Below are positions 8,529 through 62,281 of a DNA stretch of 64,000 bases, one piece after another. The stretch spans positions 50,356 to 114,355 of the forward strand of contig JBASFQ010000012.1 in NCBI GenBank assembly GCA_049653105.1. Direction: 5' to 3'. Position numbers and translations under genes: made by a program. Under the pieces are notes generated by a model. The model did not search any database and was not told the origin of the DNA. It saw nothing but the letters and a program-made list of their open reading frames with translations. The first letter of the stretch is position 1. Each line of letters begins with the position of its first letter. This DNA comes from Alphaproteobacteria bacterium (GTDB lineage: Bacteria; Pseudomonadota; Alphaproteobacteria; UBA9219; RFNS01).

Positions 8529-10046
8529 ATGGCCGATATTACGCCAACGCCACCCGTTATTCCGCCGCTGGCGCAGACGACAGCACCACCCGCCGTTTTT
8601 CCCACAAGCTTGCTGCCGGTGCAAATACTTGACCTGCCCGACGCTTTGCTTCATGTGCAGCAACAGATCAGCCTGACCGGTGCATTACAAGTTGCCGCCG
8701 AAAACCATCTTGCGCTCAGCACCACGCTCGGCAAGATTTTATTCGATCTGCCGCTGCTGCGTAACAACCCACTCTTGCTGCAGCAACTCCTGCCCTTTAT
8801 CGAGAGCGGGAAAACGGTGCAATTGCATTTGGCGGCCTCTCCCGATGGCGTTCTGCACGGTAATCTTATTCTCTCCGCCACCACGCCACTGTCCACGACG
8901 CCTCAACAACCAAGCGGTTCAAGCATACCCAATCTTTTGGGAAAAGAGGTCGCTGTTCTTATTTTATCGCAAGATCCAGAGACACCTGCGTCCACAGCAT
9001 TTCCAGCCTATTCTTTACAAAATGCGCCGCCAGCACCGGCGCTTTCAAGGCTTGCACAACAATTCCTGCATCTTCTTACCGGCGCTTCTCAGAGCCAGAA
9101 TGCAGGAGCATCGTCAGACCTTGTGCCGTCACCTCCCCAACTTAATCAGGGCATGAACCTTAAAATCCAGAACTTCGTTGCGCCCGGTCAGACACCACCC
9201 GAGCTCGCTGCGGATGAATTTGTCGCGACCGTGACAGGATACAGCACTCCATTGCAAAACCCCGTGCTTCAGGCCGGCAACACCTCTATCATGTTGAAAA
9301 CCAGCATGCCCCTCCAGATCGGCGGCATGGTGGTATTGAAACTCCCTCAGCCGCAGGCGGCAGAGATTCCCGATGCTTCCGATCTGAACAAAAGCACCTG
9401 GCCGATTTTGGAACAGCTTGTAGCTCGACCACAAGTGACAGACCCGGTACCCTTGCAGCAGTTTGTGCAAAACCGCATGCCACAAATGAATCAGGCCATG
9501 GGTGGTGCGATGCTATTTATGCTGGCCGCATTCAATCGCGGCGATGCGCGTCAATGGCTGGGACGCGATATGGTTGAATCCCTGGAACAGGCCGGCAAAA
9601 AAAATCTCGTGACCGCGTTGCAAGAAGAAATGCGGGAAAGTATGTCCACGACGACTGATCCCGTCGTCGGCCAGTGGCGCGTTTATCATTTGCCCTACCT
9701 GACGCAGGGTCAGCTTGCGCCGCTACATATATATGTCCACCATGATGGCGAGAACGGTGAAAAAGGGGAGCCCGGAAAAAAACCGGGGCACAAAACACGC
9801 TTTGTCATTGACGTTACCTTCACGCGCCTTGGCGCAATGCAGTTTGACGGCTTTGTCCAGAAGACAAAATTTGATCTTCTGCTCCGCAGTGAACGAATAC
9901 TGGATCCAGGCCTGCGCCACGAATTGCGTTTTGCCTTCACCGAAGCCGTCGGCGCTGTCGGCTATACCGGGCAACTCATGTTCCAGCAGGGCTCACAAGG
10001 CTGGATGCGTTTTCCACAAAACAAACACGAAGTGTTACAAGCTTAA
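8529..10046 (+). CDS. Pro/Gln-rich protein, possibly flagellar hook-length control protein (FliK-like)
   Basis: 505 aa with a low-complexity Pro/Ala/Gln-rich N-terminal two thirds. The C-terminal ~90 aa (LGAMQFDGFVQKTKFDLLLRSERILDPGLRHELRFAFTEAVGAVGYTGQLMF) resembles the Flg_hook domain layout. Lies downstream of flhF-fleN. Confidence 0.35.
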   Translation: MADITPTPPVIPPLAQTTAPPAVFPTSLLPVQILDLPDALLHVQQQISLTGALQVAAENHLALSTTLGKILFDLPLLRNNPLLLQQLLPFIESGKTVQLHLAASPDGVLHGNLILSATTPLSTTPQQPSGSSIPNLLGKEVAVLILSQDPETPASTAFPAYSLQNAPPAPALSRLAQQFLHLLTGASQSQNAGASSDLVPSPPQLNQGMNLKIQNFVAPGQTPPELAADEFVATVTGYSTPLQNPVLQAGNTSIMLKTSMPLQIGGMVVLKLPQPQAAEIPDASDLNKSTWPILEQLVARPQVTDPVPLQQFVQNRMPQMNQAMGGAMLFMLAAFNRGDARQWLGRDMVESLEQAGKKNLVTALQEEMRESMSTTTDPVVGQWRVYHLPYLTQGQLAPLHIYVHHDGENGEKGEPGKKPGHKTRFVIDVTFTRLGAMQFDGFVQKTKFDLLLRSERILDPGLRHELRFAFTEAVGAVGYTGQLMFQQGSQGWMRFPQNKHEVLQA

Positions 10047-58794: not shown

Positions 58795-59447
58795 CAGCCA
58801 CCTGCCTTTGCCGCCTGCGGCGCAGGAGGCGGCACTGCTGCCTTCTCATCGCCGGGCAACTGAACGTCTGTCATGCCCTCCCAGGGGCTGAGATAATCAA
58901 AACTCCGGTAATCCTGTGGTAAGTGCACAGGTTCATAAACCACACGCTTTTGCTCTTCGTCATAGCGAACTTCGGTATATCCGGTCAGTGGGAAATCTTT
59001 CCGCAACGGATGCCCGTCAAATCCATAGTCAGTCAAAATACGCCTCAGGTCGGCATGTCCGGAGAAACTGACTCCGTATAAATCCCAGCATTCGCGCTCA
59101 AACCACCCGGCAGCACTGAAGACACCAGAAACGCTCGGCACCGGCGTATTTTCGTCCGTGGTCACCTTGACCCGCAACCGGGCATTCTGGCTTAAACTCA
59201 ACAGATGATAGACAACGTCAAATCGTTCCGGCCGTTGCGGGTAATCAACGCCGCAAATGTCGACCAGCAGCTTGCACTCAAAATCCAGCGCATCGCGCAA
59301 CCGCGTCAACACCGACACGATCCGGTCACGCACCACGGTGATGGTATATTCTCCCAGGCGTTCATGGTAATCCAGAAGCGCATCGCCCAAAGTCGTGCGG
59401 ATCAAGCGTTCCGGTGAATAGTCCGGCGTGGGGACAAGATCGCTCAT
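58794..59447 (-). CDS. nuoC: NADH-quinone oxidoreductase subunit C
   Basis: 217 aa, 30-kDa subunit family ([10 protein letters not shown]). Confidence 0.9.
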
Positions 59448-60085
59448 TGTTCAGTCATCCCTTCCAGATCTTCCAAGGCGACGGGATGCAACTTGGTCGT
59501 TCCAATCAAGGTTTCCAGCGCCAGTCGAAACGCCACATCCGACGCCAAAACTTCTTTCGTTCCGTTCAGAAACCTGCACAGCACCAGAGTCCCGCCTAAT
59601 ACCGCCTCAATCGGCGTCAGTTTGTTGGCGGCATAAATATCCAGAACCTGTTGTCGCGCAAAAGCTGCCCCGGCTATTGACCAAAACATGGGGCGCTGAT
59701 CCTCGCTCACCGTCAAAACCGGAATTTCCGCGTCTCCGGTATTGACACCGGCCGCAGTCGCCTCAAAAATTTCCTCGATGTCAGGAAACTGCGTCTCATC
59801 CATGCCGACTTCCTGAGCCGTATAGACCAGATAGTCCAGCACATTGCCGTCCTCGGCCTCGCAGATCAGTTCCCGCGCCGGATCGGAAAAGATAATGCCA
59901 CGGTCGCCGTAAAGCTGTGCCTCCGGAACTACCGCACGTAAAACCGCTTCTCCCAAGACAGCCGCCGTCGTGCAGATGAGCGTATTGGCATGAACGCCGC
60001 GTTCATCGCGATGCATGTCGAACATCGCCTGTTCGATGGCCTCGGCAGCGGATTTGATGCGGTCATCCATATCCGGGAGCATCAC
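59444..60085 (-). CDS. Acidic soluble hypothetical protein inserted between nuoB and nuoC
   Basis: 213 aa, Asp/Glu-rich, with no TM and no recognised motif. The start abuts the nuoB stop and the stop overlaps the nuoC start (ATGA), suggesting translational coupling within the operon. Confidence 0.5.
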
Positions 60086-60086
60086 G

Positions 60087-60623
60087 TTAACTCCGCCTGA
60101 TCACGCGATTGCCGCGCCGGATCTTGCGATGCAACTGCATAATGCCATACAGCAGCGCCTCTGCCGATGGCGGGCACCCCGGCACGTAAATATCCACGGG
60201 CACGATCCGGTCACAGCCGCGCACCACCGAATAAGAGTAATGGTAATAGCCGCCGCCGTTGGCGCAACTCCCCATCGAGATGACCCAACGCGGCTCTGGC
60301 ATCTGATCATAGACCTTGCGCAGTGCAGGTGCCATTTTATTGGTCAGCGTGCCGGCAACGATCATCACGTCGGACTGACGCGGTGACGCGCGCGGCATCA
60401 TGCCGAAACGGTCAAGATCATAACGGCTCATATAGACGTGAATCATTTCCACGCCGCAGCACGCCAAACCGAAGGTCATTGGCCACATCGAACCGGTACG
60501 CGCCCAGGCAAGAAGATCATCAACCTTGGTCAGAATAAAACCTTTATCCTGCACCTTTTCAGCCAGTTGCTTGGCAACCTGATTGGGAGTCAGGGGTGGC
60601 GCATGTGTCGTCGTCATTCCCAT
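60087..60623 (-). CDS. nuoB: NADH-quinone oxidoreductase subunit B
   Basis: The ORF extends to 60707; the likely start is at 60617-60623, just after the nuoA stop. The 4Fe-4S (N2) Cys motifs are present ([18 protein letters not shown]). Confidence 0.9.
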
Positions 60624-60994
60624 TCCAACGCGCCCTTCTTCCATTCGTAAATGAAACCTATCGTCAACACGCCCAAAAACGCCATCATGCTGCTGAACCC
60701 GACCCAACCCAGCGCCCCCAAGGTAATCGCCCAGGGAAACAGAAACGCGATCTCAAGATCGAAGATAATGAAGAGAATGCACACCAGATAAAAGCGCACA
60801 TCAAAGCGCCGCCGTGCATCGTCAAAAGCCTCGAACCCACATTCATAGGCAGAATTCTTTTCCGGATCAGGTTTCTGCTGCCCCACAACAAAAGACATCC
60901 CCACAGCTGCACAGGCAACGACAATGGCGATGCCGATGAAGAGGAGTACGGGAAAATATGCTGCGGCTAGATCAGGGGACATAGGTGGTATCAT
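60614..60994 (-). CDS. nuoA: NADH-quinone oxidoreductase subunit A
   Basis: The ORF extends to 61072; the likely start is [15 protein letters not shown] at 60994. Three TM helices; ND3 family (YECGFE). Confidence 0.85.
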
Positions 60995-61234
60995 TTTGAA
61001 GCGGCGTATGATTCTACGCCTGTGCGGGCAAATTACGCCTTTATGACCAGAAATCAAGGCAGAACAAAGCAATACCGGTTTTTTCTGAAAATCTGCGCTT
61101 AGTGTGGCCGAGATGAATCATCGCAGTGTATGAGATTGATTGTCATTCTTGCTCTGTCAGGATCTTACGTCGTAATCAGCTACGCAGCACAGATCATCGA
61201 TTCTAGTTTTTGAGAAATTCCATGGGATGCAACA

Positions 61235-61419
61235 CGCGCGACGGGACTTGAACCCCCAAAGGCCGAAGGCCGGTCACTTGACCTGTCGCGGGTTCAGGCT
61301 TCAGAACGGTAATCGGATTATGGCGCGAGCGACGGGACTTGAACCCCCAAAGGCCGAAGGCCGGTCACTTGACCTGTCGCGGGGTCAAGCTTCAGAATGG
61401 TAATCGGATTATGGCGCGA
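61235..61419 (-). repeat. Two tandem ~91-nt direct repeats, each ending with a copy of the last ~28 nt of tRNA-Asp (T-arm 3' strand, acceptor 3' strand and CCA)
   Basis: gacgggacttgaaccc... recurs at 61240, 61331 and 61422 (period 91), and the third copy is the real tRNA-Asp 3' end. The two full units differ at only a few positions. The 63-nt spacer contains perfect hairpins GGTCAagTGACC and GGCCttcGGCC. Confidence 0.75.
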
Positions 61420-61488
61420 GCGACGGGACTTGAACCCGCGACCTTCGGCGTGACAGGCCGACGCTCTAACCAACTGAGCTACGCCCGC
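61412..61488 (-). tRNA. tRNA-Asp (GTC)
   Basis: The reverse complement reads GCGGGCGTAGCTCAGTTGGTTAGAGCGTCGGCCTGTCACGCCGAAGGTCGCGGGTTCAAGTCCCGTCGCTCGCGCCA. This gives a cloverleaf with anticodon loop CUGUCAC and an encoded CCA. Confidence 0.9.
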
Positions 61489-61609
61489 GCATGATATTAC
61501 CAAGGTCTGGCGTGGTGATAGGGCAAGAACCGGTGTCGTGTCAAATGGTTGCTACATTAACGACGCGGTTATGCCCAAACAGCCGGAAAAGACCGAAAAA
61601 TCAACCCTA

Positions 61610-61684
61610 TGGTGGGCGGTGAGGGTTTCGAACCCCCGACCCTCTCGGTGTAAACGAGATGCTCTACCGCTGAGCTAACCGCCC
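61610..61684 (-). tRNA. tRNA-Val (TAC)
   Basis: The reverse complement reads GGGCGGTTAGCTCAGCGGTAGAGCATCTCGTTTACACCGAGAGGGTCGGGGGTTCGAAACCCTCACCGCCCACCA. Anticodon loop UUUACAC, with an encoded CCA. Confidence 0.88.
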
Positions 61685-61705
61685 TTGACGCGAGTTATAG
61701 CAATT

Positions 61706-62281
61706 TCATCCCTTTTGGACAAAAATATTTCTGAGCACCATTTTAAGAGCCACCACCGCTCCGAACATCATCGGGCGCAGTGCATCAGCCATCCGCGTTG
61801 CCGCCGAAAACCAGGAACTCTCTCTGATCGCGGCAAGAATACCGTCGCGATAGGCTCTGGCCAGCGCCATTTGTTGCCCAACCCAAGCATCGGCGCGCGC
61901 AGTCCAGGGATAAGTGGCAATGACCTTGGGGCGCGCCGCATGCCATGTCGTGTGTGCAAAATAGCCAAGGCTGATCTTGGCCATGACCGTCGCCAGTACT
62001 GCGGCCATCACCCCGTACCGCCCATAAATCAGCAGCACCGCAAACTTTGACACTTCCAGCAACCCCAGCGACAAAATTGAGACGGCCAACCCCAGATGTG
62101 GCGGCAACGCGGCGATTCCGGTTTTATACTTCTGTATAATGCTTTGCCGCATCAGCCATAGGGCCAGCCACTTTACTGGCCCGAACAGCAACGTGCCCAG
62201 AATGTAAAGAGTTCCGAGCACGCGCCCGATCCAGCGCAAACCCGGGTGGCGGTGTTCAGACGGCGTCAACTCTTCTTCCAT
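61706..62281 (-). CDS. Hypothetical polytopic membrane protein
   Basis: About 190 aa if it starts at MEEELTPSEH (62281); the ORF as drawn extends to 62392, overlapping the upstream gene. Four predicted TM helices. Confidence 0.35.
   Translation of the reverse strand: MEEELTPSEHRHPGLRWIGRVLGTLYILGTLLFGPVKWLALWLMRQSIIQKYKTGIAALPPHLGLAVSILSLGLLEVSKFAVLLIYGRYGVMAAVLATVMAKISLGYFAHTTWHAARPKVIATYPWTARADAWVGQQMALARAYRDGILAAIRESSWFSAATRMADALRPMMFGAVVALKMVLRNIFVQKG

Follow-up and report, generated by a model that had tools for sequence, protein, structure and literature searches.

Directly downstream of the tRNA-Asp(GTC) gene in a 64,000-nucleotide stretch of an alphaproteobacterial contig (the whole stretch is hereafter called the window), two tandem 91-nt units are found whose spacer is made of antisense pieces of the neighbouring tRNA-Asp and precedes a sense copy of the tRNA 3' end, a composition that is newly recognised here. 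The array is probably (with a rough probability of 0.55) a lineage-specific trailer repeat similar in kind to the rtT repeats of E. coli, a mosaic of tRNA-Asp pieces that would have originated by local fold-back or template switching, changed in number by unequal crossover and be transcribed together with the tRNA. Its general interest is the antisense-plus-sense layout common to the window units and the E. coli tyrT repeats. If this reading is true, a duplicated tRNA 3' end alone is no proof of past integration, and the search for genomic islands on the basis of such repeats can mislead; moreover, the E. coli tyrT/rtT arrangement, familiar for a long time but little understood, would have unrelated alphaproteobacterial counterparts with an antisense T-arm copy, previously unremarked, and the shared antisense piece would offer a testable handle on whether trailer RNAs act on their own tRNA.

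Locus and anatomy of the array

The gene order on the minus strand is lon, hupB, two ORFs without Pfam match, tRNA-Val(TAC), tRNA-Asp(GTC), the repeat, nuoA and nuoB. The tRNA-Asp gene (61412..61488, minus strand; ARAGORN, and Rfam tRNA at 73.8 bits) is a functional gene with an encoded CCA, and tRNA-Val (61610-61684, minus strand) was likewise recognised by both ARAGORN and Rfam. On the 3' side of the array lies nuoA (60614..60982, minus strand; Pfam PF00507, E = 4e-39), the first gene of the NADH dehydrogenase operon, preceded by a promoter-like block at about 61029-61060 that is conserved even in relatives without an upstream tRNA. The 191-aa protein adjoining tRNA-Val (61706-62281, minus strand) has no Pfam domain, and most of its homologues, at 55-60% identity, carry the label Candidatus Competibacteraceae or Contendobacter (Gammaproteobacteria), an odd distribution for a gene of an alphaproteobacterium. 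In addition, ORFs of about 212 aa without Pfam match sit within the nuo operon, between nuoB and nuoC in the window (59444-60085, minus strand) and between nuoE and nuoF (L001:3354-3995), and their position is conserved across the clade.

Tandem Repeats Finder reported a single array at 61238-61437 with a period of 91, 2.2 copies, 97% matches and zero indels, the first and partial copy being the last 26 nt of tRNA-Asp itself (61412-61437). The tandem 91-nt repeat described in the first-pass annotation is thus real, and a second assembly of the same species carries both units. The recurrence of the tRNA end claimed there also holds, whereas its length, given as about 28 nt, does not: the copy is 26 nt long with CCA in unit 1 and 21 nt long in unit 2. 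The 64-kb window contains the 17-mer GGTTCAAGTCCCGTCGC at three positions only, spaced by 91 nt (0.24 occurrences expected by chance), and nothing more than 65 nt separates successive copies of the tRNA end. This 65-nt spacer has two copies in the window and none elsewhere in it, with 0 expected. No further copy of the unit was detected in the 64 kb, and the pattern of a dispersed REP- or MITE-like element was not seen there. A metagenome scan with an element-specific two-block pattern returned nine chance matches in coding DNA and missed one contig known to bear the element, and it therefore says little about dispersal.

Both units were delimited by Tandem Repeats Finder and repeat search on the minus strand, unit 1 at 61321..61411 and unit 2 at 61230..61320 (91 nt each). 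Unit 1 consists of the 13-nt trailer TAATCCGATTACC, which is the sequence directly after the tRNA-Asp CCA and is repeated in the units too, an antisense tRNA piece, two small hairpins and the exact sense tRNA 3' end with CCA (GGGTTCAAGTCCCGTCGCTCGCGCCA, 26 nt, 61321..61346, minus strand; sequence and repeat search). Unit 2 reads, on the tRNA strand, TAATCCGATTACC - GTTCTGAAGC - CTGAACCCGCGAC - AGGTCAAGTGAC - CGGCCTTCGGCC - TTTGG - GGGTTCAAGTCCCGTCGC..., and its copy of the T-loop and acceptor region (21 nt, 20/21 matching, 61235..61255, minus strand; repeat search) lacks CCA, being truncated or diverged past GTCGC. The two units differ at three spacer positions and are 96-97% identical over the entire spacer, and this near-identity indicates a tandem duplication of one unit, not independent events.

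The third block of the unit (CTGAACCCGCGAC) is the reverse complement of tRNA-Asp GTCGCGGGTTCA(AG), positions 47-61, over 12-14 nt with 93-100% complementarity. According to the repeat search, the fragment in unit 1 (CTTGACCCCGCGAC, 61376..61389, minus strand) is complementary to tRNA-Asp positions 47-60 at 13 of 14 nucleotides (2 of 3000 shuffles as good), and that in unit 2 (TGAACCCGCGAC, 61285..61296, minus strand) is an exact complement of the variable-loop/T-arm region (9 of 3000 shuffles). The same search found a GC hairpin, GGCC-TTC-GGCC, in unit 1 (61352..61363, minus strand, with the stem-loop at 61352-61362), whose 11-nt arm at 61353-61363 is complementary to tRNA-Asp positions 40-50 at 10 of 11 nucleotides; the corresponding element of unit 2 lies at 61261-61272, and the stem is invariant in all five aligned units. 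The antisense pairs of the spacer are altogether 91-100% complementary. In the related locus L105, the weaker of these antisense matches spans positions 36-49 (40-50 in the window), and exact complementarity to the 47-61 stretch extends over 12 nt in the window, compared with 15 nt in L086. When the spacers of the window, L086, L117 and L105 were aligned locally with antisense tRNA-Asp, they scored 23-30, a level equalled in only 0-9 of 3000 shuffles, whereas alignment with sense tRNA-Asp was not significant in the window units. As a control, the 90-nt trailers of 126 other alphaproteobacterial tRNAs scored at most 19, none of them with p <= 0.01. The presence of these antisense tRNA-Asp pieces implies that the spacer is not foreign DNA.

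Distribution in related genomes

Related loci were retrieved via NuoA and the flanking 191-aa protein, and the number of short units in them is 0, 1 or 2. L086, L087, L088 and L117 (NuoA 89% identical) each have a single homologous unit, which is 117 nt long and contains a 25-nt duplication of the hairpin block, and L086 has the start of a second unit in addition; L105 (NuoA 80%) carries one unit of 92 nt. Unit-bearing relatives thus cover 80-89% NuoA identity. No unit follows tRNA-Asp in L089/90 (NuoA 84%), where the tRNA gene runs directly into the conserved nuoA promoter region, or in L099-104 (NuoA 80%). L091, L096 and L097 (NuoA 82-87%) have no tRNA upstream of nuoA and are consequently uninformative on the units. 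The number of independent lineages with such units amounts to only four or five. It should also be considered that the intergenic DNA surrounding the units is alignable between the window and L086, so that the conservation of the unit is not exceptional.

A second tRNA of the clade bears a comparable structure. In L099 (2095-2290) and also in L101, a repeat with a period of 86 nt follows tRNA-Val; 36 nt of the tRNA-Val 3' end recur in it in the sense direction, and the second unit is truncated. The spacer contains CCCGACCTCTCGG, which is antisense to tRNA-Val positions 38-51 (2 of 3000 shuffles as good), as well as a small CGCGC-TTT-GCGCG hairpin.

In L086 (3770-3870) and L117 (1860-1900), the stretch from the unit to the nuoA promoter holds short palindromic repeats of the GGATTCCCGCCTGCGCAGGAATGAC type. 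They look like a REP-like dispersed element, of which only ...AAGAATGACAAT is left in the window, near 61131-61146. Some ENA contigs about 1 kb in length encode NuoA-like ORFs (P0001, P0003, P0006, P0007 and P0011; 176-206 aa) that have most of NuoA tandemly duplicated internally, and these may be assembly chimeras or real duplications.

Known trailer repeats and the origin of the units

The closest parallel is the tyrT-tyrV-rttR-tpr region of E. coli K-12, where a 178-bp repeat is present in 3.14 copies and every unit ends in the exact 18-nt end of tRNA-Tyr. Examination of the tyrV-rttR unit (L116:705-1263) revealed a 22-nt piece antisense to the T arm of tRNA-Tyr (19/22, 86%; 0 of 3000 shuffles as good), directly followed by a decayed sense T-arm copy. 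No description of this antisense piece of the rtT repeats was found in the literature searched, and searches for tRNA-trailer repeats outside E. coli gave nothing specific. Both systems form a tandem array that lies directly 3' of a tRNA gene, is oriented like it and has no associated mobile element. In both, the unit closes with the exact tRNA 3' end, CCA included, and the first part of the trailer, and the T-arm region of the cognate tRNA is present in each unit as an antisense copy. They differ in that no sequence similarity exists between them, the unit measures 91 nt in the window and 178 nt in E. coli, the tRNA is Asp in one and Tyr in the other, and the host is an alphaproteobacterium, not an enterobacterium; the window also lacks a Tpr-like ORF. 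Furthermore, the antisense piece covers the 5' strand of the T stem and the T loop in the window, whereas it covers the 3' strand of the T stem and the acceptor in E. coli.

The window has tandem units 3' of a tRNA gene with ends corresponding to the tRNA 3' end, as RtT does, whereas the Rfam RtT model gave no match (cmscan, run with E <= 10 on 60900-61800 and with the gathering score on the whole window). Over this region and the window, Rfam detected only tRNA plus two weak unrelated matches, and no family covers the units. The relation to RtT is therefore one of architectural resemblance, not of membership. Taken together, three independent repeats, the Tyr repeats of E. coli and the Asp and Val repeats of this clade, share one layout, namely a trailer, an antisense piece of the cognate tRNA, a linker and the exact sense 3' end. 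If the reading preferred here is true, the antisense T-arm copy that E. coli and the clade have in common suggests that such repeats originate by the same kind of mutation at tRNA stem-loops. Trailers of tRNA operons (3' external transcribed spacers) can also act as RNAs themselves, for example 3'ETS-leuZ of E. coli. The window units are similar to it in being a tRNA trailer that could be freed by tRNA processing; on the other hand, 3'ETS-leuZ is not a tRNA-derived repeat, and the window units have no identified target or conserved seed.

With regard to the mutational mechanism, the founding unit was probably produced when replication went wrong locally, most likely through fold-back or template switching at the palindromes of the tRNA-Asp stem-loops and possibly on a second tandem copy of tRNA-Asp, which would leave an inverted piece beside a direct partial copy. 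Template switching is an established source of mutation at inverted repeats, whose arms it lengthens and makes uniform (PMC7202029, PMC13100816). The number of units would then shift by unequal homologous recombination or slippage between the direct repeats of 26-39 nt, giving two units in the window species, one in some relatives and none in others. Such a fold-back origin is suggested only by the final arrangement of the pieces, and the antisense and sense pieces of the unit do not make up a simple perfect palindrome. The array may be a near-neutral by-product.

A rather unlikely origin of the units is the decay of tandem tRNA-Asp genes, in which two or three complete ancestral copies would have been present upstream of nuoA, the distal ones having lost their 5' halves and become pseudogenes whose 3' ends gene conversion keeps close in sequence to the live gene. 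Complete tandem tRNA-Asp genes do exist at this site in other Alphaproteobacteria: among 80 more distant nuoA loci, obtained by a NuoA scan of genome contigs (NuoA identity <= 73%), 13 have two or three of them with periods of about 95-330 nt, and none of the 80 has a partial copy. These arrays resemble the window array in position, orientation and period, and a tRNA of 77 nt and a spacer of 14 nt together add up to the 91-92-nt period. However, their members are complete and can be called by ARAGORN, whereas the window units are not recognised as tRNA by ARAGORN or Rfam, even at E <= 10, and carry the antisense segment. Weak sense similarity to the D-loop and anticodon stem was observed in L086 and L117 (GGTT-GAG-GTCGGCCTG; about 2-5% of shuffles as good), but it is not significant in the window units (p = 0.12-0.35). 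The evidence for a decayed tRNA 5' half inside the unit is marginal, with p = 0.02-0.2 in a first test and up to 0.35 when the test was repeated. A sub-sequence of 62-65 nt of the unit folds as a mini-cloverleaf, with z of only -0.3 to -2. Moreover, the place of the 5' acceptor and D stem is filled by the antisense T-arm copy, which simple decay does not give. This history can be combined with the fold-back origin preferred here, provided that template switching scrambled a second copy of the gene.

The first-pass annotation suggested, as the first of two readings, that the repeated tRNA ends are attL/attR scars of serial integration and excision. In a form of this idea that we find improbable, an element targeting the T loop of tRNA-Asp was integrated and then mostly deleted, leaving a 65-nt remnant and a displaced 3' end that were subsequently duplicated. 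The sense copy begins in the T stem and continues past CCA to the trailer, and in this it is shaped like the T-loop-class att identity block that Williams reportedly described in 2002; the units also share with attL/attR partial duplications a direct repeat of the tRNA 3' segment from the T arm to past the CCA. That tRNA-Asp genes like that of the window serve as att sites is indicated by L115 (IMG/VR UViG 3300031159_000070), a single fragment from a viral scan that bears on plausibility only: a 51-nt tRNA-Asp 3' fragment at 9421-9471 lacks the 5' half, matches the window tRNA-Asp exactly over its last 35 nt with three mismatches further 5', and is flanked by phage-like genes (SSB and dUTPase or dCTP-deaminase-like) on one side and a host sensor kinase on the other, so that it looks like the att end of a prophage in tRNA-Asp.

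Precise excision, for its part, restores a single att site. Partial tRNA genes usually arise by integration, which leaves the whole element, normally kilobases, between the full and the partial copy of the tRNA (PMC9897764). In the window, however, the copies are separated by 65 nt that contain neither an integrase nor any other gene, only spurious ORFs overlapping the repeat, and no integrase lies within 2.5 kb upstream, the neighbours of the site being nuoA on one side and tRNA-Val, the two Pfam-less ORFs, hupB and lon on the other. An occupied site is lacking as well, since no related locus has an island or integrase at tRNA-Asp, and in L089 and L099 a single tRNA-Asp leads straight into the nuoA promoter region, an arrangement that the first-pass annotation had itself named as speaking against scars. 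A scar also does not predict a spacer of antisense tRNA-Asp pieces, the same layout is seen at tRNA-Val and at E. coli tRNA-Tyr with no element involved, and the tandem state would require unequal crossover anyway. Serial integration and excision are thus not supported, and the fallback idea of the same annotation, a tRNA-derived repeat or RNA, proved to be right. Ancient integration may still have been the source of the very first copy.

Transcription, RNA folding and assembly of the locus

No terminator-like site was detected in 60900-61800, and the lack of a terminator between the tRNA and the units, or before nuoA, suggests that the units most likely belong to the tRNA-Asp precursor and would be transcribed as part of it. 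The reading of the units as intrinsic terminators was rejected, as the GC hairpin GGCC-TTC-GGCC has no more than TTT behind it in the window, and in L105 a T run is missing altogether. The transcript covering the units may start at a promoter-like block read from the sequence 5' of tRNA-Asp (TTGACA-N18-TATCAC, 61515..61544, minus strand). This block was not called by a consensus promoter scan, and it is conserved in every relative with this tRNA, having been seen in L086, L087, L089, L099, L105 and L117. Unit 1 itself contains another promoter-like sequence, TTGACC-N18-CAGAAT, which faces away from the tRNA strand (61369-61398, plus strand); it is a consensus match only and, if active, would drive transcription antisense to tRNA-Asp. 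As the units end in the tRNA's own ...GCGCCA/UAAUCC context, RNAs of about 91 nt could be set free by the enzymes that process tRNA 3' ends, in the way described for the rtT RNA of the E. coli tyrT operon.

A unit may fold as a hairpin in which the antisense piece pairs with the T-arm copy, and this is the RNAalifold consensus of five units, where the antisense piece is joined to the sense T-arm copy. None of the 21 predicted pairs in this consensus has compensatory changes, the covariation term is unfavourable (+0.96), and the folding energies of single units are no better than those of shuffles (z from +0.2 to -2). The lack of covariation and the shuffle-like energies leave a selected RNA structure unsupported. 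When the whole region was folded with RNAfold, the antisense piece of unit 1 was predicted to pair with the T arm of the real tRNA-Asp in both the MFE and the centroid structure.

It is doubtful that the units are a selected regulatory RNA, i.e., stable small RNAs that pair with tRNA-Asp or its precursor, or whose CCA end binds factors, and that tune tRNA maturation or the stringent response. Complementarity of up to 15 nt to tRNA-Asp positions 47-61, the predicted pairing of the unit 1 antisense piece with the tRNA T arm and the persistence of the element in lineages at 80-89% NuoA identity would agree with such a role, and a precedent exists in the rtT RNA of E. coli, which has been linked to processing of the tyrT transcript and the stringent response (bioRxiv 10.1101/2024.07.17.603846). 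However, in addition to the missing covariation, stem positions have changed on one side only, which makes the pairing weaker, L089 and L099 lack the element, it has no Rfam family, and its conservation is not exceptional, as the flanking intergenic DNA can be aligned between the window and L086 too. With similarly low confidence, a broader proposal can be made that trailer mosaics of sense and antisense pieces constitute a recurrent, convergent class born by fold-back and retained as cis modulators of their own tRNA. This speculative class would comprise E. coli tRNA-Tyr/rtT together with the units that follow tRNA-Asp and tRNA-Val in the present clade, and their retention might, though we hold this to be a slim chance, be explained by RNAs that pair with their own tRNA or pre-tRNA, or mimic CCA, and thereby affect maturation or the sensing of uncharged tRNA.

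Finally, an assembly artefact (a collapsed, expanded or chimeric repeat), a concern raised in the first-pass annotation, can be practically dismissed, because, although the short-read contigs L001, L002, L095 and L119-121 break at or near the locus, both units are present and colinear without gaps in the independent assembly GCA_021733565.1 of the same species (L083, 99.8% identical over 3.9 kb), the Logan contig L095, which starts within unit 2, reproduces the junction between unit 2 and its flank, and homologous units exist in three to four other lineages. The contigs of the species and its relatives that are interrupted here end in nuoA or nuoB, in the units or in tRNA-Val, L119-L121 stopping inside tRNA-Val. 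These recurrent ends are consistent with a tRNA and repeat region that breaks short-read assemblies and, in practical terms, the repeat disrupts short-read assembly of the locus.
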